Shown here one piece after another: positions 1 through 53,251 of a stretch of DNA of 55,557 bases. The notes under the pieces are model-generated. The model was not told where the DNA came from. It searched no databases and saw only the letters and a list, made by a program, of their open reading frames with translations. The stretch is from a virus. Its lineage: Duplodnaviria; Caudoviricetes. The stretch's first letter is position 1; each line of letters begins with the position of its first letter. The position numbers and the translations under genes are program-made. The DNA is taken from the IMG/VR virus record IMGVR_UViG_3300044699_000015, positions 1 through 55,557 of that record; one strand, written 5' to 3'.

Positions 1-585
1 CTTTTCCAGCCTTGGAAGGAACAGCGCCAAAGCCTCACGAAACACGGCCATTTTATCCTCGTCCCGTTCAATGGTCAAAAGCAGCGTTGGAAACCCACGA
101 CGATAAGACATGAATTTCCACCACTTACGGCCTGTGACGTAGAGCGAGAAGTGGACTTGCGTAACGTAATCGTTTGGCAGCGCATTGTTCAGGAGATATT
201 TAACATGGTTGCAAGGTTCTGGACATTTCACTTCAATGCCCCCGTCATCGCCTATCAATCCATCGGGGGAGCATCCAAACAGCCCGTCATCGTCCGTCAC
301 AAGTCCCACCCGCTCCACCTTTTCACCAGAATCAAACTCGTAAGCCGGAATAGCCTCTTTTTCGAGGATGTTTCCAAACTCCATAGTTAAATCCATATGG
401 CCGGGGATTGGGCCGGAAAGCCACTTTTCAGCGACTTTCTGAGCAAGATAGGTCTGGACACCCAAACCCTTGCGAATCTCGAATGTGGGGCTAACCAGAG
501 CGTCAATTTCACTGGCTGTAATCAGACCAGCGCGGGCGGTTAGCCATTCCAATGAGTTTTGCGCGAAATGAGTATAGACTTTCAT
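1..585 (-). CDS. YqaJ-family (lambda exonuclease-like) viral recombinase, runs off window start
   Basis: Not in ORF track; manual translation MKVYTHFAQNSLEWLTARAGLITASE...FGNILEKEA...GCSPDGLIGDDGGIEVKCP...YVTQVHFSL; ATG overlaps ERF stop (ATGA). Confidence 0.9.
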   Translation of the reverse strand, partial: MKVYTHFAQNSLEWLTARAGLITASEIDALVSPTFEIRKGLGVQTYLAQKVAEKWLSGPIPGHMDLTMEFGNILEKEAIPAYEFDSGEKVERVGLVTDDDGLFGCSPDGLIGDDGGIEVKCPEPCNHVKYLLNNALPNDYVTQVHFSLYVTGRKWWKFMSYRRGFPTLLLTIERDEDKMAVFREALALFLPRLEK

Positions 586-2405: not shown

Positions 2406-2963
2406 TCATGCGTGGGTTAGTGTGTTAAGTTGCGCCTCGGCTTCGGTTATAGTCGCCTTGGCAGCGGAAAGCTCTATTGTCTCAAACGCATCGAAATAAC
2501 GCTTCCCAAAGGCATCCTGAGCGCAATTACGCAGTATCCGGCTTTTAGTCTCCTTCGCCTCTTTCAGTTTCCGTTCCCAATAGATGATTAAAGAACCGGG
2601 GGAAGATGTTCCATTCCTTATTTTTGGTTCTACTGGTTTCAATTCGTGGCCCTGTTTAGAACCGTCCTGAGGGTCACAAGTAGAACCGCGTAGGTTCTGG
2701 ATAGAACCGTTCACGAAATACCGATTAGACCTTTTTAATTCGCGTTTTTCGACTTTGATGTAGCCAGCCGATTTCAATTCCTTAATCCATCCGAGGAGCG
2801 CGGCGCGTCCGCAATGCAGTTCCCGGCAGATTGTTTTGAGCGACGGCCAGCAGCACTCATTCTTGCCCGTCATATCACGGAATAAATGCCAAGCCCTAAA
2901 TGCGCCGTGGGATATGCGCTCGTCTCGGATGATTTTGGAATATAGCTTTGGGGAGATTTTCAA
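2406..2963 (-). CDS. winged-helix (HTH_36-like) replication-initiator-like protein, paralog 1
   Basis: RISHGAFRAWHLFRDMTGKNECCWPSLKTICREL...IKELKSAGYI...SNRYFV; start moved to TTG 2963 because similarity to 52445-53251 begins there and the upstream DNA is promoter plus structured leader. Confidence 0.75.
   Translation of the reverse strand: MKISPKLYSKIIRDERISHGAFRAWHLFRDMTGKNECCWPSLKTICRELHCGRAALLGWIKELKSAGYIKVEKRELKRSNRYFVNGSIQNLRGSTCDPQDGSKQGHELKPVEPKIRNGTSSPGSLIIYWERKLKEAKETKSRILRNCAQDAFGKRYFDAFETIELSAAKATITEAEAQLNTLTHA
2591..2709. repeat. iteron-like repeats inside initiator-like gene
   Basis: TAGAACCG at 2657, 2681, 2702; AAGAACCG at 2591; inverted GGTTCT at 2626 and 2693. Confidence 0.6.
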
Positions 2964-2969
2964 TCTGAT

Positions 2970-3102
2970 AACCAATTCCCACAAGACACACCCGCCCCGG
3001 CGACAACCGTCCAGCCTCGCGGCGAGAGATTCCGAAACGGGCGTGTATTGTGGCAACTGATTAGTGCAGAAGCCGCGTATGTAGCATTCGAGACGGTTGT
3101 CA
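2970..3102 (-). ncRNA. structured 5' leader (A-C-B-C'-A'-B' pseudoknot/switch), copy 1
   Basis: A 3102-3091 pairs A' 3012-3001 (12 bp); B 3062-3032 pairs B' 3000-2970 (29/31); C 3077-3072 pairs C' 3023-3018; G-U wobbles only on minus strand. Confidence 0.75.
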
Positions 3103-3116
3103 TATCGTCTAGTGGG

Positions 3117-3145
3117 TTTATCGCCCATGCCGCCGAAAGTGTCAA
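3117..3145 (-). promoter_or_regulatory. sigma70-like promoter
   Basis: TTGACA-17-GATAAA just upstream of the leader. Confidence 0.55.
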
Positions 3146-8341: not shown

Positions 8342-8752
8342 ATGGAACTCGCAAGACAGCCTCGGTCTATTTTCCGGTTCACCAAGGAAAATGCGGGGCA
8401 ATTCTCAGCCCAAGCCATTCAACGCAAGCGCGAACTCAAAGCCATCCGAGAAAAGGAGCTAGAGAAAGCTAGGAATGCCACCCCACAAACCGAGCGCATC
8501 GCCCGACAGATAGCTAGGATGGAGGAAATGATGGACAAGACAAAGGATGCTGACGAGCTACAGAAGCTATCAGCCGCACACGCTCGTTTGTTCAATGCTT
8601 GGCAGGTGCTTACAGGCACTCCAAACCCCGGTTCCAGCAAGCCATCGCGCAATCGTGAGCAACGCCAGCCCGTGCAACCAATCCAACCTATTGTGGCTCC
8701 TGCGGCAACTACGGACATACAAGTTGACCCATCGAAAACAGGGCCAGCGTAA
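8342..8752 (+). CDS. helical protein, possible terminase small subunit
   Basis: FTKENAGQFSAQA basic N-terminus, coiled coil, P-rich tail; followed by ~460-bp non-coding region; function inferred only. Confidence 0.35.
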   Translation: MELARQPRSIFRFTKENAGQFSAQAIQRKRELKAIREKELEKARNATPQTERIARQIARMEEMMDKTKDADELQKLSAAHARLFNAWQVLTGTPNPGSSKPSRNREQRQPVQPIQPIVAPAATTDIQVDPSKTGPA

Positions 8753-8848
8753 TCATCAATGATTGCAGGGGGTTGATATTATGTGGCATACAATGAGAAT
8801 TATATTTAATTGAGTGAACCACTTATGTATCAGTAGGATTTCGTTGGT

Positions 8849-8861
8849 TATCAACTACTTG
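8849..8861 (+). promoter_or_regulatory. IHF-consensus site
   Basis: TATCAACTACTTG matches WATCAANNNNTTR. Confidence 0.4.
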
Positions 8862-9211
8862 CAATCATAAGTGAGTGAATGTGCTTGACGGGGTGTCGCC
8901 CTGACTGCCCTAATATCTCTGTGACTACGTGAGCGTAAGGACGTAACCTGTTGAATAACAATCCTTAAGCATTCTTTTCGCTGGCTAGACCGTCTCCACA
9001 CCACCCACCCGGCAGGGGGAAATCGTCGCCATTCGCGTTCTACGTGACTCCCACCTTTAAACAGAGTTCACTTCTAACTTTTCTGGAATGTGGTTCTTTG
9101 CTGTCTGACTGCCGATTACAGAGGACTTTACTGATTTACCACACTCTGGTAGGTTTCAGACAAAAAAATGCCTGTAATCGAGTTTTACGGGCATTGGCGG
9201 GGCAGTGGAGA

Positions 9212-9619
9212 CTACTGAATGGTCTTTATGTGACGGATGTAATCGTTCAGGATTTGACCGGAACGGGCAGGGTAATCGAGAATCATTTGTGGAAGTTCGG
9301 TGTCCCAAACATTCGATTTCCTGCAATAATCGCAGACAATCGCTGCGAATTTCTTGGTTATTCGGGTGAGTTTTTCCATCGCCTTTGATTCGGTTTCGGT
9401 AATCACCGATGTTTTAAATGTGCAGCGTGTGACTTCCACGATTCGACAGACCTTGGCCACGGAATCGAATATCCTTCGCTTTTCCACCATGAAATCAGCA
9501 CACCGATTGCAGCAAAGCATTTTCTTCCATGATTCAATTTGAAACTCAATTCCTTGCTCACTGTCGAAATCAAGCCATCCCGGCTTGTGGCAGAACTTAC
9601 AGGTGTAATCAATTCTCAT
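9212..9619 (-). CDS. Zn-binding hypothetical protein coupled to initiator gene
   Basis: CKFC, CNRC, CDYC; ATGA overlap. Confidence 0.65.
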   Translation of the reverse strand: MRIDYTCKFCHKPGWLDFDSEQGIEFQIESWKKMLCCNRCADFMVEKRRIFDSVAKVCRIVEVTRCTFKTSVITETESKAMEKLTRITKKFAAIVCDYCRKSNVWDTELPQMILDYPARSGQILNDYIRHIKTIQ

Positions 9620-10323
9620 ATTCTATCCAACTCCTTTTCTAACAATGATTTGGTTAATGGTTTACCGTTAAATTGTCCGTTCGTTACCGGCTTTTGGCTC
9701 GGTAAGTAACCGGCGGCTTTCCATGCGGCAATAGTGTGCGGCCAGCTTTTGATTGGCTTTCCGTTCACCGTCCATCCGTTTCCTTCGCACTTGTTCCAGA
9801 ACCAAACCGCGTCGGACTCGGGAAGTCCTGACTTGGCCACTGCCAGCTTTACCTCCTCAAGAGAGGGCTTTGTCTTAAGAGTCTTGGGAACAGAAGCAAC
9901 TACAGAAGCAGAGGCAGGCTGAATCGTGGTAACGCTTGTAACGTTACGTAACGCATGGTAACGTTCCCTGTGCTTTCGCACTCTCTCTCTTGTTTTTACT
10001 GCGATGGGATTGGAGGAAAGCCGGTCACGGAAAGCCAAGTAATTTAGCACGAGCCAACCTTCCTGTAGGGTTTCAATTCGCCTCCCGTCATTATCCGGTG
10101 TGCGTGACTGAGGGTCGGGTGATTCAAACTTCTTTAAGGCTTCTAGGCAGGCCGAGTTGGTAACTTTGGACTTAGCCGCTAGCCAGCCCACGGAACCCCT
10201 TACAAGTCCATCAGCGTTACATAACGCAAGTAACGTTACCCACACCTTGCAGGTTTCGGCATCCTCATCCCAGATTGAACTGTCAACAATGTCAGAAAAA
10301 AGTTTCGTATAGCCGTCAGACAT
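9616..10323 (-). CDS. phage replisome-organiser / replication-initiator-like protein
   Basis: YTKLFSDIVDSSIW...KVWVTLLAL...GWLVLNY...RERVRKHRER; C-terminal PSLEEV...FWNKCEGNGW.VNGKPIKSW. Confidence 0.75.
   Translation of the reverse strand: MSDGYTKLFSDIVDSSIWDEDAETCKVWVTLLALCNADGLVRGSVGWLAAKSKVTNSACLEALKKFESPDPQSRTPDNDGRRIETLQEGWLVLNYLAFRDRLSSNPIAVKTRERVRKHRERYHALRNVTSVTTIQPASASVVASVPKTLKTKPSLEEVKLAVAKSGLPESDAVWFWNKCEGNGWTVNGKPIKSWPHTIAAWKAAGYLPSQKPVTNGQFNGKPLTKSLLEKELDRI
9929..9963. repeat. iteron-like repeats
   Basis: GTAACG at 9929, 9938, 9948, 9958 (about one helical turn apart). Confidence 0.6.
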
Positions 10324-10331
10324 AAGTAGAA

Positions 10332-10430
10332 AAAATCTCACTCCCACTGCCAAAGGCGTGTGATGTCAGAGCGCGAAGGAACCGACCGCCATTAGCAGGG
10401 GAAGTGAAATTTTGATTTCCCGACATCACA
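10332..10430 (-). ncRNA. structured 5' leader (A-B-A'-B'), copy 2
   Basis: A 10430-10420 pairs A' 10369-10359 (11 bp); B 10413-10387 pairs B' 10358-10332 (25/27); B' holds GGGAG and ends in a U6 run. Confidence 0.75.
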
Positions 10431-10435
10431 AAAAG

Positions 10436-10464
10436 ACACTCTCAAAACACCCATGGGGTGTCAA
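10436..10464 (-). promoter_or_regulatory. sigma70-like promoter
   Basis: TTGACA-17-GAGTGT, 5 nt before element A. Confidence 0.5.
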
Positions 10465-10540
10465 CCCCAAACTGGAAACTAACCCCCATCCGTAATACTC
10501 CTGATTGCGCCTGAGTCTGGGGTGTGGTTAAATCGAACGT

Positions 10541-14690: not shown

Positions 14691-16502
14691 TCAATCGTGG
14701 ACTAATAGCCGTGATTTGATGGCATTTTCAAATTCTTCCATCTCGGCTTGCATGAAGTTATCTGTTGAATCCTCGGATTTGTCAATAATTCCAATGCGGG
14801 TTATCTGGAAACCCAATCTTCTCGCCCCCTCGACCCCTATGGCAAATGTATCCATCAAATCTGGGCTTTTCTTGATTCGCTCCTTCATGTCCTCCTTTTT
14901 CTCTATCTCAATCTTGTTGCCAGCGACGATGGAATACATACGCATCTGGCCCTCTTGAGCGACTTCCTTGGGAAGATTGCGAACTTGTTCGGATTCGATG
15001 GCTTCTCGGGTTGAGAACCATAGTTCGGTCAAAAATTTTGAATAATGCTCCGAACACTTTTTCAATCTCTTTTCAATCATCCCGTATTCATTTTTAACTT
15101 CATGGAACAAATCGTGCCTTACAGGTCGGTCGGTCGGTTTTCCTCCTGCATTCACCGGAATTGGAGATTTATCTTTGAACACTTTTGAAAAAGCATGGCC
15201 GATTGTGCCGATTCCAAATGAGTCGTAAAAACAATTCTCCGATGGAATTCCCAACATATCCAATTTCTCTTTGGCGAATGCTGCAATTTGCTCCTCCGGT
15301 TCCATGCTCGAATTAAGTCTGATTGGAATTATTTCTGGCTCGCTACAATCAATCACGGTTTGTCCATAAGCGTCTTCACCGAACTGCAATTCCATACCCA
15401 CGCATCTATCGCCAGAGCCATAGGCTAAATCAATTGCGTAAAGTTTTGTGCGTTCAGTTCCTTTCCATACAACATCATCAAACGCCTTGTGTTTTTGGCA
15501 TAATGTCATCGTAATCACTCTCCAAGACACCATATTCTTAGAGGGCTTACCGATGCATTGAGAAAACCATTGCCACGAGTCTTTGCCGTGGGTGGAGGCG
15601 ACTGATTCGAGCAATTTATCCGATATTAGAAACGGATAACGGGTTCCCGGAAAATCTTTGTTGGGATTGTCTCTGCCATCAAAGGCGACGACGTGGGCAT
15701 TGTAAAACTTTGATTTCCATTCCTGAGTTTTTTCCGTGTCAACAAATGAATCCCATCCCGCGATAGGCTCTGCGGCTGTGCAAAGCGGTTCCGCGAGGTC
15801 GAGGGGATTGCCTCCCATGCAACCCTTGAAATTTTGATTCACCATCCAATTCGTATATGCGTCCAAAAAACTTGGCTGCATCAATGCGGCCTCATCTCCG
15901 TAGTGCGCCAACTTACCGTCTAATTTTCCGGGTGAGTTGGGAGGCTTAACACCCTGAAATTTTGACATGCCAACAAATCTTCCACCGCTGACGCAGGGCA
16001 CGCACACAATACCTTTATTTATAGTTCTTGCCATTTCATTGTCGTCATCAATATCGTCCGGTGTGATGGCCATTGCCGATTCTAGAACGTATCCGGGAAG
16101 CCAAGGGAACTTTGATTTAGCACGGTTGTATAATTCTTTAACCCGACCCCATACGCGCAATTCCAGTGACCGTTTATCGGTGGAGGAAATCAATGACAAA
16201 GAAGTGTGCGGGAAACAAAAAAAATCTATCAATGGCATGACTGCCATCAGAGTAGTTTTTCCAGAGCTTGCACTTCCAAGAAACACAGTTATTTGATTCT
16301 CAACCATTCTTCTGATTCCCAAAGTGAACCAACGATGCTGTTCGTCTTCTTGGAAAAGAAGTTTGTGAATCCTCAAATATGTATCTACGCGATTCGTTCC
16401 GAGTTTGGCCATTTGTGAATCTGATTGGCCCAACATCCACATTTCGATTTGAAGCTCATGCGTTCCCTCTGGCCATAGAAGCCCATATCTGTTAAGCGAC
16501 AT
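14691..16502 (-). CDS. terL: terminase large subunit
   Basis: Walker A GSASSGKT, Walker B GDEAA, GNP coupling motif, RNase H-like AIDLAYGSGDRCV, C-terminal KSPDLMD. Confidence 0.9.
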   Translation of the reverse strand: MSLNRYGLLWPEGTHELQIEMWMLGQSDSQMAKLGTNRVDTYLRIHKLLFQEDEQHRWFTLGIRRMVENQITVFLGSASSGKTTLMAVMPLIDFFCFPHTSLSLISSTDKRSLELRVWGRVKELYNRAKSKFPWLPGYVLESAMAITPDDIDDDNEMARTINKGIVCVPCVSGGRFVGMSKFQGVKPPNSPGKLDGKLAHYGDEAALMQPSFLDAYTNWMVNQNFKGCMGGNPLDLAEPLCTAAEPIAGWDSFVDTEKTQEWKSKFYNAHVVAFDGRDNPNKDFPGTRYPFLISDKLLESVASTHGKDSWQWFSQCIGKPSKNMVSWRVITMTLCQKHKAFDDVVWKGTERTKLYAIDLAYGSGDRCVGMELQFGEDAYGQTVIDCSEPEIIPIRLNSSMEPEEQIAAFAKEKLDMLGIPSENCFYDSFGIGTIGHAFSKVFKDKSPIPVNAGGKPTDRPVRHDLFHEVKNEYGMIEKRLKKCSEHYSKFLTELWFSTREAIESEQVRNLPKEVAQEGQMRMYSIVAGNKIEIEKKEDMKERIKKSPDLMDTFAIGVEGARRLGFQITRIGIIDKSEDSTDNFMQAEMEEFENAIKSRLLVHD

Positions 16503-17100
16503 TTTTCCACAGCTTTCTTTTCAAAATAAACCCAATCGCAGTTTTGGATACTCCGTATTCTCTGCCTAAAGTTTTCCAAGTCCACCCGCCTATTGCATAT
16601 TTCTGCCTTATTTCTCTCACCTGCCACTCGAACAGTCTTGAGTCTCCATTTCTCTCTCCTCTGGCGACACATTCAGGATGTAGTCTTGGGCCGCTCCTAT
16701 CTCCACGGGCTAATTTTTCTGGATTTGTTCTGGCATAATGGGCATCTCCCCTAATGGTAACTTTTCTTCCCTTTTTAATCATGTCCCTAATGTTATCAAG
16801 ACACGTTCCCAAGAATAAGTGAGAGGGATTTACGCATCCGGGGTTGTCGCAATGGTGACAAATAAAGTGACTCTCTGGAATAACTCCATTTTTTATCATC
16901 CAAACCAAACGGTTTGCGTTATAGGCTCCTTTTCTAACGTAAAACCTTCCATATCCAGAGCGTTTTCTGCCCAACCACTCCCAACAATCGCCATTTTTAT
17001 CAACAAGTGACCAAAATTTAGTCTCCTGTTCGGGAGTTAGTTTGACATATTGCCATTTGCTTGGGATGGTTTCAGAAGAACCGGACATCTTAGTTTTCAT
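16492..17100 (-). CDS. HNH (His-Cys box-like) homing endonuclease with C-terminal HTH
   Basis: CWEWLG...GYGRF...ICHHCDNPGCVNPSHLFLGT..DNIRDM..KGR. Confidence 0.9.
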   Translation of the reverse strand: MKTKMSGSSETIPSKWQYVKLTPEQETKFWSLVDKNGDCWEWLGRKRSGYGRFYVRKGAYNANRLVWMIKNGVIPESHFICHHCDNPGCVNPSHLFLGTCLDNIRDMIKKGRKVTIRGDAHYARTNPEKLARGDRSGPRLHPECVARGERNGDSRLFEWQVREIRQKYAIGGWTWKTLGREYGVSKTAIGFILKRKLWKNVA

Positions 17101-17184
17101 TCTTATGTTTGGTTTTAGCGGCTCGCGTGGCGTGATTACCATTCGAGCCGTGTTTATTTTGTCATTCCATCGTAAAATCACAAG

Positions 17185-18513: not shown

Positions 18514-19196
18514 TTACCACCTTCTAACTGGAGTGCAAAGGGATTTCTCGATTGACCATCCATTAACCAATCTATCTTGGAGCGTTCTGTAATTTATCCC
18601 AATCTCCAAAGACCATAGCATCATACTCTGGCGCTTTCCGTTAAATTCTATAATCCTATTATTTCTTCTATTGTTTTGCTGCTGTTCGGGGGTTGCCCAA
18701 ATACAATTTGAGGGTTCGTAATTTCCATTAACATTTTTACGCTCAATGCTATGTGTTTTGGATGGCCTAAGTCCCATATCGGATAAAAAACAATCGAATG
18801 AATTTAGCCAACGCTCGCAGATTGAAATTCCCCGACCTCCATAATCTTTGTAATCTGAACATTTTGTGTTTAAACATCGCTGCTTTAATCTGCTCCAAGT
18901 ATCATATTCTGGCATTATATTTCCCTTTTAGCATAACCATGAACATAGTTTCTTTTAGAGGTTGTTTCTGAACTTAAACAACCGCACGAGTTGGTTCGTT
19001 TTCCTATATCGTGCCCTGTGACAGTTGTTGTATTTCCACAATCGCATTTACAAAACCAAAGCGACCTCCAATGTTTACTTCCGGCGTGATATAAGACGGT
19101 TAATTTCCCATATCTCTTTCCTGTTCGGTCAATAAATCCATTGCCGCGCTTGACTGTTGTAAGGGAATTATGAGAGGGTTTGTTTAGGTCATTCAT
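18514..19196 (-). CDS. HNH-like endonuclease (two ORFs joined by TAATG or a 1-bp deletion near 18923)
   Basis: TGKRYGKLTV...WFCKCDCG...SCGC..HG, then YDTWSRLKQRC..YGGRGI.IC.RW...SIERKNVNGNYEPSNCIWAT. Confidence 0.8.
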
Positions 19197-19303
19197 ATTT
19201 ACGTATGGTGATTTAGCTTGGCGTTGGTTGTTCAATGCTTCCAACGTCAGGCGTCATTCTGCTTGACATGTAGGCATAAGCAAGCCGAAAGTCAGTCAAA
19301 TTT

Positions 19304-20167
19304 ATGAACCCGGTTTCATGTGCTCCTTCTTGTTGTGAAAGTGTTTTACCCATACAAATTCCGGGGCCAGAAGGCCCCGACGGAACTCCCGGAATTTCTG
19401 GAACCGACGGTAAAAACGCCTTCACTTTCACCACCGCCGATTTCACTGTTCCTGCCATTGGCGCAAACGTCGTTGTTCTCGTTGCGAACTCCGATTGGAT
19501 GACTCTGGGTCAAAATGTATTCGTTCAAACCGCTGGAAACTTTAAAGTGGTTGAAAAGCCAGCTTCAACGAGCGTTATTCTGCAATATCTAAATTATGCT
19601 GGAAATGTTGGCACAGGAAATTTGGTTGGAACGGGGATGCAAGTCAGTCCATCCGGCACGCAGGTAGATGTTTCTGGAATAATCGAATTGGTGGATAGCA
19701 CCGGAGGGACAATTAGCAATGATATAAACTCTGGTGTCGGAAAAACGACTATTGCGCTATACATCACGCTCGCAAACCTCACTAATGCTGATGTTATTAC
19801 GGCTTACACACCCGGATATGCCTTCAAACTGTTAAAAGTTTCTTTCGGTGTTCAAGTGGCTGCAACCACCGCTTTGAAATTGGCAACTATCACACCTTAC
19901 ATTTCCGGGGTGGCAGTTACAGGAGGAATTTTGTCGCTGACTTCCGCCAACTGCACCCCCAAAGGAACGATAGTGGCTGGAAGTGCAATTACCGCTTTGA
20001 ATACCGGAGATGATGCAGCCACTATCACGCTGACCGCCTCGGCAGTAACGGCTTTCGTGGAAGGAACCGGATGGATTTTGATTGAGATTCAGAATACTGA
20101 TGTTGCCAATGCGCTTGCCTCTCTCGCAGCAAAACAGAATGAACTGTTGACAGCCCTTGCACCTTAA
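19304..20167 (+). CDS. tail/fibre-type structural protein with short collagen-like segment
   Basis: GPEGPDGTPGISGTDGKN; FTVPAIG domain shared with the next gene. Confidence 0.6.
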   Translation: MNPVSCAPSCCESVLPIQIPGPEGPDGTPGISGTDGKNAFTFTTADFTVPAIGANVVVLVANSDWMTLGQNVFVQTAGNFKVVEKPASTSVILQYLNYAGNVGTGNLVGTGMQVSPSGTQVDVSGIIELVDSTGGTISNDINSGVGKTTIALYITLANLTNADVITAYTPGYAFKLLKVSFGVQVAATTALKLATITPYISGVAVTGGILSLTSANCTPKGTIVAGSAITALNTGDDAATITLTASAVTAFVEGTGWILIEIQNTDVANALASLAAKQNELLTALAP

Positions 20168-37576: not shown

Positions 37577-38031
37577 AGGTTTTCTAATGGTATTTTCACA
37601 ATCGCACACTGACCGTCGTTGATTCCCACAGAGACCAAAATATTTCCGTTGCTCTCAATCGCGCCACCGGGGAAAGCCACATTCTTTTTGTATTGCAGAC
37701 AATTATTCCTGTCCATCGGGTCTAGTGTGTCCAACTCGCTGCCAGCAAAGAGTGGCTCCTTGCACATTTCAAGAATTTCAAATGGTGGCTCTTTTTTCAT
37801 TACTAACCACCCGACGTAGTATCGATGGCGAGGATTTGAAAATTCCCCATCTCGCCTTGAGTGGAAAATACGCAACAGATTTCCCTTCCATGGAATTACA
37901 ACCCCACCTCTTATTGCTCCAAATTCCCAAGTGGGAGCCTTGGTTTTTATCTCTCTTACCATGTTATCGCCCTCAAGTTCCAAAACAACTTGATTGTCTC
38001 CAACAATTCCATAAACACAGTAGAGTTTCAT
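37573..38031 (-). CDS. C-terminal half of GH130/GH43-like beta-propeller (split gene)
   Basis: KLYCVY...IRGG...FHS...YYVG...PPF...VAFPGG...VSVGIND. Confidence 0.7.
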   Translation of the reverse strand: MKLYCVYGIVGDNQVVLELEGDNMVREIKTKAPTWEFGAIRGGVVIPWKGNLLRIFHSRRDGEFSNPRHRYYVGWLVMKKEPPFEILEMCKEPLFAGSELDTLDPMDRNNCLQYKKNVAFPGGAIESNGNILVSVGINDGQCAIVKIPLENL

Positions 38032-38492
38032 GGTATGATGTTCAATCTTCCAAATTCACCGTGGTATTTTAAAGATGCTGCATTGTAAGCCAATGTGGCT
38101 TCCAAGGCAGTTTCAAATCCTCCAAGGAAAATAGCTCTTTTGTCCGACATTATTCTTGCTTCGTATCTTCCATTTTTAACCCTAACCCCCTTAATTCCCA
38201 GCCTATTATTCACGGGAACTTTTCGGTTTCTCATGTTTTGGCTACGAGAACACAATCGGATGTTATCCCTTCGATTGTCCAATGTGTTTCCGTCCTTATG
38301 GTCAACCCATTGATTGCTTTTGGCATTTAAGATTTGACGGTGCATGAGAATTGTTTTTCCATTTTCTACACGGGATGCGTAATAGGTTTTAGTTTCTCCC
38401 CAATGAGCAGACCACTTCCATTGAGATAAAAGGTCATAATCTTGGTCATCAACTATTGTGACCATGCCGTGAGTTAATGGGATTGTTTTCAT
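38028..38492 (-). CDS. HNH endonuclease with AP2 domain
   Basis: MKTIPLTHG..TIVDD.DY; MHRQI; VDHKDGNTLDNRRDNIR; YNAASLKYHGEFGRLN. Confidence 0.9.
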   Translation of the reverse strand: MKTIPLTHGMVTIVDDQDYDLLSQWKWSAHWGETKTYYASRVENGKTILMHRQILNAKSNQWVDHKDGNTLDNRRDNIRLCSRSQNMRNRKVPVNNRLGIKGVRVKNGRYEARIMSDKRAIFLGGFETALEATLAYNAASLKYHGEFGRLNIIP

Positions 38493-40357
38493 ACAGAGAA
38501 GAAGCACCAGTTTTTTTCGGATGATGTGAAGTCGTTCCCGCCATACTTGGGCTGTTTCACATTGATTAAAGTCCAGCGGCCTCGAATGTTTGTCAGTTGC
38601 CCATATTTCACCACGCAAACGTATTCGTTCGGAAGGCGTGACTCGGTGTAAGAGCAATACAAATCGTTGCCATGATGGAATAATCGCCCGTCCTCTGTGC
38701 TATACATCAAATCGCCTTCCAGCCATTGATTATTCAGCACATTGAATTGTTCATCCAATTCTGCAATGGCGAGTTGGGTTGTGAGATTGCCGGTGCGGTG
38801 GCTGCGATACATCATTAGGAGCCTGCCATCGTGACGGATAATGGAGGGGTTATAACCGTATGCGTAAACAGCCTTGGCATTGATAATCGAACAATCCACT
38901 TGGTCAACGACTGACGGTTTCGCCGTGGACAATCCAATCTTCTTGGCAAACTCCACCAACAATTCTTCGTTGTATTTGCGATAGGGCGATGGCTTGTATT
39001 CAACCGGCGCAGAATCTTCGCGTTTGCACACTCCCCATTCAGCATCCTTACCCATGAACGCGGCTAGACCCTGACACCAGTTTTGTTCGCTGCCCATCAC
39101 AAAGTCCGGTATCAACTCCACATTGTTATCCCACCATTCGCGGGTGAACATAAAAGCATCAATCTGCGAACGCTTTTCACCGTTGATATAGCGATGGCTA
39201 TACGCTGGCATGGGGCGTTGTTCGAGTTCTGAACCCGTTGGGAATATATCAGGCCGAGTCAGCATAATTACATCCTTGGCATCTGCCTTGAGCGTAGCCA
39301 ACCTCACAGCATCTTTCAGGAATGGATAACGATAGATTTCATCCGGCCATTTCACCTTGGTATCCCTGCCGAACGAACCTATCTCCATTGGCGACGATAC
39401 CCACGCGCCTAAGTCATAGCTCTTTTGCCATTCTTTCTTTGCCCGCTGATGCCTCTCCTTATTGGCCTCGGTGATTTCGTATTGCGACCAGACGTGGACA
39501 ACTTTAGGGCTTGAAATACCCTTGGCGAAAAAGGAGCCAGCTTTTCCAATGTTCCCGATTGCCCCCAAAATTTCCACGGCGCGATTGGGAAAGTCACCAT
39601 AACGAACATGCGCGATGTATTGCGGCCTATTCGGGCTTCCGTGCCAAAGTGAGGGTTGGTCTTGTGTGAGCGCAACAACCGGAAGCGCAGGACAAGCGTA
39701 GGCGAGTTGCAAGGTGGCCGTATCGCAGGAGACAAGACATTTTGTGTTGGGATGCTCATAGATGCCTAACAAATCGTAAAAACGGTCTGCGCGGATTTTG
39801 GATATGTCCACGATTTCATACCAGCGTCCAAACCGGAGCCGCAACATTTCCATCAGGACATTGCCCCACGGAAACGGGCTGGTAACGCCTCCAAGGTTGC
39901 ACAGAATCCACCCTTTCTTACCGGATGGCATTTTCTTTAACAGTTCTGATTCACGAACGGGTTGGCGATTGTCGAACACCAAAGGATATTGATTCTTCCA
40001 TTCAGCCAACCGGCCTAACAATCGCCATTGCTCTTTAGCGAATGATTCACAGTATTGCGCGTTTATGTCGATGCCGGATTTAACGTAGGCTTCGCGCAGG
40101 ACCGTTTCTCTGTCACCACACACTTGAGCGATTTTGTAGCCCTCATCAATCGTCTTGGCGAAATCCACAGCACGCGATAGTTCCATGAAGTTACCGTTGA
40201 ATACGATTGGGTCTAGATAACTTACGCCGTCCAGCAAGGAGGCATAGTCATGGGAGACGATTAGCTTCCAGCGATTACCACGCTCATTGTCGAAGCGGGC
40301 GAGAGGGAGAAGGTTGATTACGTCGCCCAATTTTCCGAGTGCTAAAATCGTGGGCAT
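38489..40357 (-). CDS. multidomain GT9-like glycosyltransferase plus N-terminal half of glycosidase-like propeller
   Basis: GKLGDVINLLP; LVSCDTATLQLA; YNPSI; EDGRLF; ends EKNWCFFSV. Confidence 0.7.
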   Translation of the reverse strand: MPTILALGKLGDVINLLPLARFDNERGNRWKLIVSHDYASLLDGVSYLDPIVFNGNFMELSRAVDFAKTIDEGYKIAQVCGDRETVLREAYVKSGIDINAQYCESFAKEQWRLLGRLAEWKNQYPLVFDNRQPVRESELLKKMPSGKKGWILCNLGGVTSPFPWGNVLMEMLRLRFGRWYEIVDISKIRADRFYDLLGIYEHPNTKCLVSCDTATLQLAYACPALPVVALTQDQPSLWHGSPNRPQYIAHVRYGDFPNRAVEILGAIGNIGKAGSFFAKGISSPKVVHVWSQYEITEANKERHQRAKKEWQKSYDLGAWVSSPMEIGSFGRDTKVKWPDEIYRYPFLKDAVRLATLKADAKDVIMLTRPDIFPTGSELEQRPMPAYSHRYINGEKRSQIDAFMFTREWWDNNVELIPDFVMGSEQNWCQGLAAFMGKDAEWGVCKREDSAPVEYKPSPYRKYNEELLVEFAKKIGLSTAKPSVVDQVDCSIINAKAVYAYGYNPSIIRHDGRLLMMYRSHRTGNLTTQLAIAELDEQFNVLNNQWLEGDLMYSTEDGRLFHHGNDLYCSYTESRLPNEYVCVVKYGQLTNIRGRWTLINVKQPKYGGNDFTSSEKNWCFFSV

Positions 40358-41606: not shown

Positions 41607-42917
41607 ATGGCAATCGACTGCTCCAAGTTCAACAGCTTTTTGCTGAGAAGAACCCCCGATTTTGATAAACAGTTATCAAAAGACCGTTATCCGTTCAGCT
41701 ATCTCTACACCAACATGTATGAGAGCCAGCCTTTCACAGCGTTTACAGGCTTTCAACACACTTGGGATAGGGTGCATGTGACTCGTCCCAACGATGATGG
41801 CAATTGGGATACGGTCAACTCGAACGACTGCGCTCAAAACATCTGCGATTATTCGCGTGTGTTCACAGGTTGGGGTTCGACTCGTTCTACGTATGGCATT
41901 TTCCATCGGGACTATCAGTCGCCGGTGTTCTGCTTTGACCAGTTAAGACATGTGGAGGAAGCGGAAGCGCAATTGTCGGCTATCGTTGACGGCCACAAGA
42001 AATTGCCTGATAGCATCATTTCGGATTTCCTTCGTTTGCTCGCCATGCGGCAGTCCAATGTGATTTGGATTTGCGGCTCGGCGGATACGCAAGTGACAAC
42101 CACCGATTCAATGTTCACGTTCACTAACGGCACATTGAATGTCAATTTGGGTGGCACAGGAAATCTGCCTGATTCCAAGCTTTCCATCCAATATCTGAAC
42201 AACCACGTCGAAAACCTGATGTATAACGGTTATTTTGACCAAGACTTTATCCCCACGGGTAAGTTTTCGGTCACTACCGACATTCAGACGCAAACGGATT
42301 TGACCAATGCTAATCCATCGTTGACGCAGATGTATAACGCGGCTGACTTTGTGAAGGGCGGAAAATTCTTCGCCTATGGCGTTATGTCCGGTGCGGGTAA
42401 TTGGTTGTTCAAGGTTGACCCGGAACCGATGCGTTTTCAGCATATTGGCTCTGGCGTCCTTCGGCGCATTCTGCCCTATCAGAACGTGGCAACTACTGTG
42501 GGCAAACAGCCGGTGTTTGATACCGCGTATAAGAACGCAGAGTATCAGATGTATCACGTCTATAATCGTGCGGCTCGCAAGATTGAGGTTGGCGACATTA
42601 CGCCGGTCAATCCTGAAATGAAGTTCAACACGGCGCGTTCGCTCATGGGCAAATGGTCATGGAAGTCGCCTGATTACTTCCGCGCCACCGACCCGAACAC
42701 TGGGACAGTGTGCGAATACATGAACGACAAGAAGAACAAGGGTTACTTTTTGGCTGAGTTCGAGATGGGTGCAAAAACCATCTACCCGGAAATCGAAATG
42801 GTCATCATTGCGAAACGTGAACCGCAGGGCGTGGTTAGCATTCCGCGTTGTGCCGATTCGCCTTCGATGGTCTATCAGTCGCTCACGCCTTACAATGGGC
42901 CTCTGTGCGAGCAATAA
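41607..42917 (+). CDS. probable major capsid protein
   Basis: 436 aa, codon usage looks biased (AAC/TTC/AAG), own promoter region, followed by strong hairpin and structural genes; no direct family match verified. Confidence 0.65.
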   Translation: MAIDCSKFNSFLLRRTPDFDKQLSKDRYPFSYLYTNMYESQPFTAFTGFQHTWDRVHVTRPNDDGNWDTVNSNDCAQNICDYSRVFTGWGSTRSTYGIFHRDYQSPVFCFDQLRHVEEAEAQLSAIVDGHKKLPDSIISDFLRLLAMRQSNVIWICGSADTQVTTTDSMFTFTNGTLNVNLGGTGNLPDSKLSIQYLNNHVENLMYNGYFDQDFIPTGKFSVTTDIQTQTDLTNANPSLTQMYNAADFVKGGKFFAYGVMSGAGNWLFKVDPEPMRFQHIGSGVLRRILPYQNVATTVGKQPVFDTAYKNAEYQMYHVYNRAARKIEVGDITPVNPEMKFNTARSLMGKWSWKSPDYFRATDPNTGTVCEYMNDKKNKGYFLAEFEMGAKTIYPEIEMVIIAKREPQGVVSIPRCADSPSMVYQSLTPYNGPLCEQ

Positions 42918-42931
42918 GAGTCTGATTAACC

Positions 42932-42959
42932 GGACGGCAGGTGTCATAGCCTGCCGTCC
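42932..42959 (+). terminator. stable hairpin after capsid gene
   Basis: GGACGGCAGG/CCTGCCGTCC 10 bp perfect, no U-tract. Confidence 0.5.
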
Positions 42960-42976
42960 TAACAACGAAAGGTTTT

Positions 42977-43261
42977 ATGGACTCAACTGATTATCAAAAT
43001 GGGGACGGCGGGCCTGCTACGGCTTCGCTGGACGAATCACCCGACACGAAGGGTGGGGAAGATACGTTCTTTTTGCCATCCGACTTCTGCGAAGGGATGG
43101 ATTACAAAGAGGGTGATACGATTACTCTTAAAGTAGTTAATGCGCCTGATTCGGATGGTGATGTGGAGGTTAAGATGGCAAAGGGTGAGAGCAAGCCAAA
43201 GGATGACTTCTACAGCGATATGCGAAGTTCTATGAGTGACGAAGGAGGCCAAAGTGAGTAA
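42977..43261 (+). CDS. small acidic protein
   Basis: 94 aa D/E-rich, AAAGG SD. Confidence 0.7.
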   Translation: MDSTDYQNGDGGPATASLDESPDTKGGEDTFFLPSDFCEGMDYKEGDTITLKVVNAPDSDGDVEVKMAKGESKPKDDFYSDMRSSMSDEGGQSE

Positions 43262-45986: not shown

Positions 45987-46328
45987 ATGAGCAACCATAC
46001 CAACCCTAAAACCATGTCAGAGGAACAGGAAAAGAAAATGTCCACGCCTACAATCGGTTTAAATACCAAGTTCCGTTTGGATTTCTTAGTCGCCATGGCT
46101 CCGGTAGTTTGCATGTTGGTAGTCCTGTTTTTTCAAGTCAAGGAAGTGAGCAAAAAGGTGGACAACCAATGGACAGTGGGCAATATGGCGGTATGGTCAC
46201 AGCAATTTCAGAATGATAATCCATCGTCCAAGGTTCCTGAACCGTTCAAGATTAAGCATTTAATGGAACCGGGGTTTGTCATGTTGCAACCGCCATTAAC
46301 CACAGCATCCATATACCAACAACCATGA
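45987..46328 (+). CDS. single-TM membrane protein
   Basis: FLVAMAPVVCMLVVLFF. Confidence 0.6.
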   Translation: MSNHTNPKTMSEEQEKKMSTPTIGLNTKFRLDFLVAMAPVVCMLVVLFFQVKEVSKKVDNQWTVGNMAVWSQQFQNDNPSSKVPEPFKIKHLMEPGFVMLQPPLTTASIYQQP

Positions 46329-52166: not shown

Positions 52167-52277
52167 GCCTGAAATTATCACCCCGCCGTTGCAAAGTCCA
52201 TCCGATGTAATACGGATGCCATTCCGAACACTTTCACCTTGCCATTTTTAATCGGCGGGAGGACGATGCGAGAATGC

Positions 52278-52306
52278 TTGACAGGAAATGGTCATTTGAC
52301 CAATAT
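52278..52306 (+). promoter_or_regulatory. sigma70-like promoter
   Basis: TTGACA-17-CAATAT. Confidence 0.6.
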
Positions 52307-52314
52307 CGGAGCAA

Positions 52315-52438
52315 TGTATACGTTGATTCAGTTCGCGGCAAGCGAGTCTCAATCGCCCCCGTTCGTGTCTGTAGGAGTCCGAAGCCTTGCCGCCCAAAGA
52401 CGTATACAGCCTACAGACATGAATCGGGGTTATTGGGA
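52315..52438 (+). ncRNA. structured 5' leader (A-C-B-C'-A'-B'), copy 3
   Basis: A 52315-52324/A' 52399-52408; C 52335-52342/C' 52386-52393; B 52347-52375/B' 52410-52438 (27/29). Confidence 0.75.
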
Positions 52439-52444
52439 ATCGCC

Positions 52445-53251
52445 TTGCAATTAGACCCCAAGATTTATTCCCAAATCATTCAAGATAAGCGTATCTCTCA
52501 CGGCGCTTTCAGGGTGTGGCATCTACTTCGAGACATGACCGGCGACAACACTCATTGCTGGCCATCCATGCGGACGATATGCAAGAAGATTAGTTGCAGC
52601 AAATCTTCGGTTTCGGGGTGGATTAAAGAGCTAATCGAAGCGCAGTATGTAACGGTGAAGCGCGGCTCTCGACATTCGCCAAACAGGTATTTCGTGAGCG
52701 GTATCGTTTCAAACCTCAGTGTCTCGGAAGGATACCACAGAGGTATCGTTTCAGGGACGGAATTGAACTCAAAGAATATTAACTCAAATAACCAACTAGC
52801 TTCTAGTATGGAAAATCCACAAGACAAAAACGTTCAGGACTTCCACCACTGTTACAGGCAATCAACGGGATTAGATGTCTCTCTTAATTTTTACCGTGAA
52901 AGCATGTGGCGCGAATGGTTCCGGTATGGCGAAACTCATTGCGGTGGGTTTACTCAGGACGACTTGCGGGCCGTGGTTGAGTTGCGAAAATTCCGGGCCA
53001 AGAACAAAATGCAGGGATACCACACTTTAGCGTTTAATGCGCTTATAGGCTCGCCAGATGTCATGGAGGAGGATTTGTCAGAAGCCCGCGCAAAGTCTCG
53101 CCAGCGCAAGCCTAGCGCCAGAGACGCGATTTTAAGAGCCACAGGCCGACCCACAGAGCCAACCCGTGCTGCTGTGACTGCGGGCAATGTGATTGAGGGG
53201 GAACGCGCTTTCCAAGCGTTCAGGCAATGGCGTGCAGAGAATAACCTGTGA
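52445..53251 (+). CDS. winged-helix (HTH_36-like) replication-initiator-like protein, paralog 2
   Basis: RISHGAFRVWHLLRDMTGDNTHCWPSMRTIC...GWIKEL...NRYFV; TTG start 6 nt after leader. Confidence 0.75.
   Translation: MQLDPKIYSQIIQDKRISHGAFRVWHLLRDMTGDNTHCWPSMRTICKKISCSKSSVSGWIKELIEAQYVTVKRGSRHSPNRYFVSGIVSNLSVSEGYHRGIVSGTELNSKNINSNNQLASSMENPQDKNVQDFHHCYRQSTGLDVSLNFYRESMWREWFRYGETHCGGFTQDDLRAVVELRKFRAKNKMQGYHTLAFNALIGSPDVMEEDLSEARAKSRQRKPSARDAILRATGRPTEPTRAAVTAGNVIEGERAFQAFRQWRAENNL
52700..52753. repeat. iteron-like repeats
   Basis: GGTATCGTTTCA at 52700 and 52742; inverted GATACC at 52731. Confidence 0.55.

Follow-up and report, generated by a model that had tools for sequence, protein, structure and literature searches.

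A conserved RNA element with a leader reading frame before three replication-initiator-like genes of an uncultured tailed phage, and its probable role in translational coupling

In several plasmids and in one genomic island, translation of the replication gene depends on a short open reading frame (ORF) placed in front of it. Here we describe an RNA leader of related design that precedes three replication-initiator-like genes, rep1, gene 2 and rep3, of an uncultured tailed phage, IMG/VR record IMGVR_UViG_3300044699_000015 (the window below is this complete record; it has 55,557 bp, CheckV puts its completeness at 100%, and its ends are classed as linear). From 5' to 3', each leader holds a segment A, the 5' arm B of a long imperfect hairpin, a loop with A', the complement of A, at its 3' edge, and the 3' arm B', so that the hairpin buries the start region of the gene (rep below, for any of the three). 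A leader ORF opens at A and runs through the hairpin towards the rep start.

For the genomic island SGI1, PMC7826253 describes a leader ORF, S004, that overlaps the repA start inside a long inverted repeat masking the Shine-Dalgarno (SD) sequence and the start codon; an early stop in S004 abolishes RepA, and leader translation in cis is required. Leader-peptide control of rep is likewise described for Tap/RepA of plasmid R1 and for IncI1 and IncI2 (PMC8053102), and leader-peptide-coupled rep for the repB/repA/RNAI arrangement of the I-complex (PMC10286972). According to PMC5304414 it is the level of leader translation that matters, not the peptide.

The phage leaders are like S004-repA, which belongs to an IncN2/N3-related replicon, in that the end of the leader ORF overlaps the rep start in a masking hairpin; the SGI1 account also invokes no antisense RNA. 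According to the same account the SGI1 ORF overlaps repA by four codons and has only its 3' end in the stem-loop, whereas the phage ORF spans both arms and the loop. Long-range pairing onto the leader start codon is not reported for SGI1, whereas the phage leaders have A:A'. The rep families are unrelated, and one system sits on a genomic island, the other in a phage. R1 tap-repA is alike in that Rep needs translation of the leader peptide and control acts at leader initiation (PMC8053102, PMC5304414); there the controller is the trans antisense RNA CopA (CopA/CopT), whereas the phage leaders show no evident antisense promoter and a cis segment, A', would cover the leader start. Leaders of the I-complex (IncI1, IncB/O, IncK) and of IncL/M share with those of the phage a leader peptide, coupled to rep in the plasmids (PMC10286972, PMC8053102, PMC8125031) and probably so in the phage. 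Both also have a pairing over a long range, in which one partner is close to the leader start and the other directly 5' of the rep start region, with the topology A-B-A'-B'. In those plasmids that pairing is a short activating pseudoknot between the loop of an upstream stem-loop and bases beside the rep SD, formed once the leader ribosome has opened the masking stem and blocked by RNAI, whereas in the phage it covers 9-12 bp including the leader ATG and may activate or repress; phage A lies at the leader ATG and not in the loop of a stem-loop, and A' is unpaired in the hairpin loop and not inside a stem. No sequence or Rfam relation links these leaders to those of the phage. The first-pass annotation of this DNA had set the leaders beside the pseudoknot-gated repZ/repA of IncI/IncB plasmids, a relation that stands in logic and not for the activator pseudoknot.

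Tap of R1 has ~24 codons, and the phage leader ORFs have 36-53. A related logic is known from hok/sok, where the mRNA folds back 5' to 3' and, by mok coupling, an overlapping upstream frame brings ribosomes to a hidden start. In hok mRNA and in the leader of the phage MS2 maturation gene, cis long-range pairing limits translation to a window in the life of the RNA. Genes, geometry and processing all differ from those of the phage leaders, and the analogy is one of logic only.

Full-text literature searches gave plasmid and island examples, and no phage rep leader of such design was found. Two features that define leader-peptide coupling are present: a short ORF ends at or overlaps the rep start in all seven leaders that we compared (at +38 in one), and the rep start is masked by a structure that this ORF crosses. 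The phage leaders are a conserved RNA element and vary a control principle already known, without being a system of a new category; the new regulatory system first proposed for them belongs with leader-peptide translational coupling of rep genes, a class described before.

Leader frames and hairpins of the three cassettes

The seven leaders are W1, W2 and W3, which belong to cassettes 1 (rep1), 2 (gene 2) and 3 (rep3) of the window, and L006, L007, L009 and L011 from metagenomes; they amount to about six independent lineages, L006 and L007 being close relatives. In every one of them an ATG within or abutting A opens an ORF of 36-53 codons, out of the rep frame, which passes through B, the loop, A' and B'. 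Its stop falls on the rep start as NTGA (TTGA or GTGA) in W1, L006, L007 and L011 and, counted from the first base of the rep start, at +5..7 in W2 and +7..9 in W3. The chance of any one frame staying open in shuffled leader regions is 0.14-0.27. A TTGAC-type -35 element lies 35-43 nt upstream of the leader-ORF ATG in all seven; if this promoter is real, the ATG would lie about 0-7 nt from the 5' end, which implies leaderless or near-leaderless initiation.

A repeat search and folds confirmed the design first claimed for the three cassettes, namely TTGACA, A, and a B:B' hairpin that buries the start region and has A' as the 3' edge of its loop. What had been overlooked is the leader ORF, whose ATG belongs to A and whose stop overlaps the rep start or follows it closely in six of seven leaders; the ribosome-free pseudoknot or attenuator read into the design is not supported as stated. 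The features of the three cassettes are as follows.

52278..52306, plus strand: putative promoter of cassette 3 (TTGACA at 52278-83, 17-nt spacer, CAATAT at 52301-06; matches 6/6 and 3/6)
52314..52454, plus strand: cassette 3 leader ORF, 46 codons, ATG at 52314, TAG at 52452-54
52315..52324, plus strand: cassette 3 segment A, TGTATACGTT, overlapping the TG of the leader-ORF ATG
52335..52342, plus strand: cassette 3 inner helix, 5' arm, GCGGCAAG, from the repeat search
52342..52375, plus strand: cassette 3 B, 5' arm of the long hairpin, from fold and repeat search
52386..52393, plus strand: cassette 3 inner helix, 3' arm, CTTGCCGC, in the hairpin loop
52399..52408, plus strand: cassette 3 segment A', GACGTATACA, 1 nt 5' of B'
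52410..52443, plus strand: cassette 3 B', 3' arm, containing a GGGAAT motif and ending at the rep3 start
52445..53251, plus strand: rep3, 268 aa, TTG start, HTH_36 domain, phrog_270 replication initiation protein
3140..3145, minus strand: cassette 1 -35 element TTGACA, read from the sequence and by scan
2960..3103, minus strand: cassette 1 leader ORF, 47 codons, ATG at 3103-3101; its TGA at 2962-2960 overlaps the rep1 TTG (TTGA)
3092..3101, minus strand: cassette 1 segment A, GACAACCGTC, 10 nt, 100% complementary to A'
3002..3011, minus strand: cassette 1 segment A', GACGGTTGTC, from the repeat search
2969..3063, minus strand: cassette 1 hairpin B:B', arms 3063-3038 and 2994-2969
2406..2963, minus strand: rep1, 185 aa, TTG start, HTH_36 domain
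10459..10464, minus strand: cassette 2 -35 element TTGACA, read from the sequence
10316..10426, minus strand: cassette 2 leader ORF, 36 codons, ATG at 10426-24, TGA at 10318-16
10422..10430, minus strand: cassette 2 segment A, TGTGATGTC, containing the leader-ORF ATG; 9 nt, 100% complementary to A'
10359..10367, minus strand: cassette 2 segment A', GACATCACA, 0 nt 5' of B'
10334..10411, minus strand: cassette 2 hairpin B:B', arms about 10411-10387 and 10358-10334, from the minimum-free-energy fold
9616..10323, minus strand: gene 2, 235 aa, ATG start, replisome-organizer-like

The cassette 3 leader ORF is in the +1 frame relative to rep3 and in the same frame as the listed ORF 52239..52454. The A/A' core there (52315-52323 with 52400-52408) is 9 nt, 100% complementary, to which the G-U pair 52324/52399 adds one, and the 34-nt arms of B/B' are 79% Watson-Crick with 34 nt in between. 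The inner helix noticed earlier at this locus is real, with 8 nt, 100% complementary (52335-52342 with 52386-52393). Its 5' arm has two partners, the loop copy at 52386-93 or the start-codon region CCTTGC at the bottom of B:B'; in the minimum-free-energy fold of W3, GCAAG is paired with the CUUGC that contains the rep3 start codon.

Two further observations concern the 5' ends. At 10454-10469 (minus strand) the upstream gene ends in a terminator-like hairpin, TGGGGTTGACACCCCA with a T-rich tail after it, and the loop of this hairpin contains the cassette 2 TTGACA. In W1, L006 and L007 a small hairpin with the leader ATG in its loop can form when the GACG just 5' of that ATG pairs with the CGTC in which A ends (3108-3111 with 3092-3095 in W1); because A' begins with the same GACG, A may toggle between a local and a distal partner.

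Folding, strand specificity and conservation

The leaders W3, W1 and W2 fold with z = -4.6, -3.6 and -3.4, and 0, 1 and 1 of 200 dinucleotide shuffles, respectively, fold as well. When 120-nt windows were slid along both strands of the whole genome, W1 and W3 came out as the two most stable, and W2, taken as a cluster, was about seventh. A descriptor combining the features, when run over the window, returned only the three cassettes and one weak false match at 46325. Minimum-free-energy folds of the full leaders reach -43 to -73 kcal/mol, with the GGGA motif paired and stems of about 26-36 near-continuous pairs interrupted by small internal loops. The hairpin was at first thought to end 6-8 nt before the rep start; the burial holds, the end point does not, as minimum-free-energy stems reach the start codon in several leaders and indeed take it in in most. 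The earlier remark that G-U wobbles favour the sense strand is borne out by all seven leaders, in which the fold of the sense strand is more stable than that of its complement by 8-26 kcal/mol and contains 3-9 G-U pairs per leader.

Uninterrupted Watson-Crick pairing of the A region with any other part of the leader extends over at most 9-10 nt in six of seven leaders (matched by 3-7 of 2000 shuffles) and over 7 nt in L011 (matched by 141 of 2000). From the end of A' to the rep start the distance is 29-44 nt in every case. When the nascent RNA is folded from the 5' end to A', A:A' is the closing helix in all seven, with duplex energies of -13 to -20 kcal/mol; once the whole leader is folded B:B' prevails, exceeding the stability of the A:A' duplex by 25-50 kcal/mol, and A is left either unpaired or in a small hairpin nearby. 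The linker from A to B is about 13-17 nt and A' abuts B'. A full pseudoknot of A:A' with B:B' looks sterically impossible from this geometry, and because of the abutment and the short linker the two helices would more likely compete.

An exhaustive HMMER protein search returned 697 proteins at E<=1e-3, and a metagenome scan gave 49 loci, among which the close subfamily, with the protein start [M/L/V]-K-I-D-P-x-L-Y-S, comprises L005-L011 only. All of these have the same leader design, L005 being cut off inside the leader. Four of the leaders are distinct (L006=L008, L007=L010, L009 and L011), and the recurrence of the design in 4/4 upholds the claim of a conserved cis RNA structure in replication-gene leaders. 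Their A/A' pairs, GAACAGCGTC/GACGCTGTTC, ACCATGCAG/CTGCATGGT and ATGAACTCC/GGAGTTCGT, differ between lineages yet stay complementary, with the position of A' fixed, and the private A:A' pairing first seen in the three cassettes extends to every leader, each with its own complementary sequences. In L009 (860-975) the sequence surrounding the rep start codon is the same as A (ACCATGCAG), and A' could pair there with the leader-ORF start or with the rep start.

Between L006 and L007 identity is 121/140 in the leader, 170/249 in the rep coding region and 24/59 upstream of the leader; outside a 6-nt indel, the only one, which lies in the loop, the leaders are 90% identical in nucleotides. All four substitutions at paired positions keep the pair via G-U, on the sense strand only, and no pair is broken. 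Among the 13 leader substitutions, 12 are non-synonymous in the rep frame and eight in the leader-ORF frame, which indicates that an extension of rep across the leader is not a conserved protein and that the leader peptide is not conserved in sequence either. Taken together, the better conserved leader, the pairs kept by G-U and the non-synonymous changes argue for selection at the RNA level. The seven leader peptides have no relation to one another in sequence and, because of this and of the eight non-synonymous changes, the sequence of the peptide appears unimportant.

A covariance model, R1, was built from L006 and L007 only, and its output alignment also contains antisense matches and one spurious match. 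It detects L005, W1 and L011 weakly (E 0.006-0.02; W1 at 2973-3059 with E 0.009) and does not find W3, W2 or L009. Because of this pattern we regard some leaders as recognisably homologous and others as sharing the design alone, and the statement that the primary sequences of the cassettes differ completely needs correction at least for W1. An alignment of the seven leaders by MAFFT was not structure-consistent and was left out of the pair counts.

Beyond the close subfamily the element thins out. Distant HTH_36 homologues, including those in Verrucomicrobiota and Akkermansia genome bins, have no sense-specific hairpin at this position, and a scan of genome contigs together with 401 genomes of the phylum of G003 gave distant homologues only, without the leader. 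A search of IMG/VR with each of the three proteins and with an alignment gave nothing for rep1 or rep3; gene 2 has two loci there, a truncated one (L003) and one without a leader, with only 11 nt between genes (L004). No match came from tblastn with rep3 and gene 2 against GenBank phages or with rep3 against PLSDB plasmids, and a word-index protein search returned the query itself only. Rfam 15 gave no match at gathering thresholds for the whole window and none at E<=10 for leaders 3 and 1; matches of leader 2 and of the homologue loci to microRNA, small nucleolar RNA and viral families were at chance level, far below the gathering score. The element is unmatched among Rfam families.

A coupling mechanism and its alternatives

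The arrangement probably serves to couple rep translation to translation of the leader ORF, with A:A' additionally masking the leader-ORF start codon. Each cassette would be transcribed from its own promoter, and the first ~130-160 nt of the mRNA would form a translational gate. B:B' would lock the rep start codon and the GGGA-type motif, and direct ribosome entry on rep would be blocked. A ribosome on the leader ORF, which starts at the ATG near the 5' end in A and ends on or just past the rep start after 36-53 codons, would melt B:B', and on termination the same or a fresh ribosome would start at the weak TTG, GTG or ATG; rep output would be set by the level of leader-ORF translation and not by the peptide. 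A:A', covering the leader ATG, would close once A' is transcribed and compete with the full B:B' stem, limiting the frequency or duration of leader-ORF entry, with low, rationed Rep as the outcome and no separate antisense RNA. From the elements described above we infer the coupling, a near-leaderless start of the transcript and, most of all, what A:A' does exactly.

For A:A' we favour a cis gate on leader-ORF entry. The opposite sign is possible, A:A' pulling the bottom of B:B' open by analogy with the activator pseudoknot of IncI/IncB; the loop decoy CTTGCCGC of W3 and the L009 A segment with its copy of the rep start region are hints of such an opening role. More tentatively, the leader may be a self-contained translational timer without antisense RNA, in which a leader ORF at or near the 5' end could be entered only while A is free, so that each transcript would yield a small fixed ration of initiator. 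A would then be free before A' is transcribed or while the full B:B' displaces A:A', and the private A:A' sequences would let three initiator modules coexist in one phage without cross-talk. With such a timer the open rep frame could also reflect an N-terminally extended Rep isoform from read-through transcripts.

It should be noted that several observations weigh against coupling through the leader ORF. In L009 the stop falls at +38..40, inside rep, a looser coupling than in the other leaders. No recognisable SD precedes the leader-ORF ATG in the seven leaders, and the model therefore needs leaderless or short-leader initiation in the host of the phage. The -10 hexamers are weak (3/6 match in W3 and 4/6 in W1; that of W2, read as GAGTGT by eye, failed the scan threshold), and a separate sigma-70 scan of the three leader regions found no promoter; of the TTGACA-17-(-10) promoters first described, the TTGACA stands in all three cassettes and the -10 is weak. 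The rep frame is also stop-free across the leader in six of seven, and 21 of the 27 database relatives retrieved carry an in-frame N-terminal extension of 52-90 residues. A search of sequencing runs for the window sequence found one DNA run (6% of sampled words) and no RNA run. Nested folding cannot score A:A' and B:B' together, and A:A' may either repress the leader ORF or open the rep start; the sample of leaders is small. One possibility for the open rep frame is a minor long isoform made from read-through transcripts. A programmed -1 frameshift that would carry leader-ORF ribosomes over to the rep frame was considered and dropped, no slippery heptamer being seen by eye between A and B.

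Regulation of a coupled leader in trans, by an antisense RNA or an RNA-binding protein (ProQ/FinO-type, or Rep itself) that binds A, A' or the loop, seems unlikely here, though it has precedent: the well-studied relatives of the design all use antisense RNA (CopA, Inc RNA and RNAI; PMC8053102, PMC10286972, PMC8125031), IncI2 also uses a ProQ/FinO protein on the stem-loop holding the leader start (PMC8053102), and the loop of 28-34 nt is a plausible target. A relaxed -35/-10 scan of the seven leaders found no antisense promoter at a consistent position (a weak negative, with sense promoters only marginally detected), transcripts from the antisense promoter candidates that do appear would run out of the leader, no antisense family of Rfam was matched, and folds of the antisense strand are far less stable. 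A ribosome-independent cis pseudoknot or attenuator, in which A:A' and B:B' alone would switch the rep start and the leader ORF would be a meaningless by-product, is in our judgement rather improbable. Both helices are real and conserved, the inner helix of W3 could act as a loop decoy for a strand that otherwise pairs with the start codon, and A' of L009 has two possible partners, its A being equal to the rep start region; but in 7/7 leaders this reading would leave unexplained why A holds an ATG, why the frame stays open across the hairpin and why it stops on or close to the rep start, and with B:B' 25-50 kcal/mol stronger than A:A' the equilibrium would be permanently off without a ribosome or other factor. 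General transcription attenuation was dropped, as a T-run follows B' in W2 only.

RNase III also processes long hairpins, for example in the N leader of phage lambda and in early mRNAs of T7, and stems of ~26-36 pairs are within the length that RNase III accepts. The near-continuous pairing with small internal loops would suit an element that is chiefly such a site, with cleavage freeing or destroying the rep start region, but the leader ORF, the NTGA overlap and A:A' would stay unaccounted for; we give this reading, whose processing step could coexist with coupling, slightly less weight than the ribosome-independent switch. It is very improbable that the rep proteins truly start 57-64 codons upstream (ATG 52274, ATG 3155), with the hairpin inside the coding sequence, even though the rep frame is open across the leader in six of seven and the extensions recur in 21 of 27 top library relatives. 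The extension is barely alignable as protein, and the domain begins sharply at a column that holds only M, L or V in all 29 aligned relatives of rep3 (V 12, L 9, M 8); 12 of the 13 changes between L006 and L007 are non-synonymous in the rep frame, though the leader nucleotides are better conserved than rep; the ATGs available in that frame are located within the conserved TTGAC element or 5' of it; and five relatives begin exactly at the short start, a sixth 11 residues before it. The extensions of 52-90 residues appear to be leaders translated in the rep frame, that is, spurious gene calls. The residue after the start is K or N in 25 of 29, compatible with NTG-A, and 36-56 codons upstream 21 of 23 extended proteins have a dipeptide compatible with xAT-G, at a conserved R-R-[N/Y/H]-[E/D]-like spot; such protein-level hints, like the start column, are consistent with the leader ORF and are not proof of it. 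Least credible of all is an element acting as DNA, whether an operator, a cruciform or a part of the origin bound by the initiator. An inverted repeat adjoining an initiator gene would invite that interpretation, but the strand asymmetry is strong, the G-U pairs that all substitutions in the stem preserve exist on the sense strand alone, typical operators are much shorter than these arms, and iteron-like direct repeats inside the genes are better origin candidates.

The replication genes, their phage and the meaning of the leaders

It is reasonable to call rep1, gene 2 and rep3 replication-initiator-like. The scores for Pfam HTH_36 (PF13730) are 54.5 bits for rep3 and 31.8 bits for rep1 (cutoff 25), both proteins match PHROG replication-initiator families, and they share 54% identity across 97 aligned residues. 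A Pfam search with gene 2 gave no match, HTH_36 included; its nearest named ESM Atlas clusters are phage replisome-organizer families (Phage_rep_org_N), which is lead-level evidence, and its homologue in L004 lies directly upstream of an ORF that, by eye, we take to encode a DnaB-type helicase. Residues 129-268 of rep3 (52829-53251) match free-standing library proteins of ~140 residues (P0005-P0007, E 1e-33 to 1e-36), and rep3 looks like a fusion of an HTH_36 module with a separate small protein.

In all three genes the coding region carries iteron-like repeats, placed 3' of the part for the N-terminal DNA-binding domain: two copies of GGTATCGTTTCA in rep3 (52697-52753), three copies and one inverted copy of TAGAACCG in rep1 (2657-2709), and clusters of GTAACGYT in two inverted groups in gene 2 (9927-9965 and 10214-10240). 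These may be lambda-O-style origins, one per cassette.

Few other genes in the window can be named; they include a large terminase, several HNH endonucleases and a sigma-factor fragment. An Erf-type annealing protein gene lies downstream of rep1 and a resolvase-like endonuclease gene downstream of rep3. The HNH-type endonuclease ORFs are scattered (16492-17181, 18514-18915, 18915-19244 and 38028-38657), endonuclease VII-like and Lar-like genes are also present, and no tRNA genes were found across the whole window. Three other structured places were noted on the plus strand. The region 19150-19320, between the divergent HNH gene 18915-19244 (minus strand) and ORF 19304-20167, is strongly structured (z -4.0) and has TTGACT at its 5' end; a perfect GC-rich hairpin, GGACGGCAGG...CCTGCCGTCC, at 42927-42960, after ORF 41607-42917, is terminator-like; and 8759-8868, in an AT-rich gap, holds a 20-nt inverted repeat with a 70-nt loop. 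The very stable folds at 19150-19320, 42850-43040 and 8740-8890 were considered as further copies and rejected, as they do not share the architecture of the rep leaders.

The phage leaders would extend leader-ORF coupling of replication initiators from the plasmids and islands of Proteobacteria to an uncultured tailed phage, whose distant rep relatives are found in Verrucomicrobiota genome bins. This variant is unusual in that leader-ORF initiation appears to be controlled by a segment of the same RNA, in cis, and not by an antisense RNA. The succession of promoter, ATG within A, B, loop, A', B' and NTGA overlap makes a candidate new RNA family, and its description also exposes what appears to be a systematic annotation error, since spurious leader-derived extensions are seen in 21 of the 27 closest relatives retrieved. 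Finally, the leader may represent a simple, testable design for rationing a protein that is harmful in excess.

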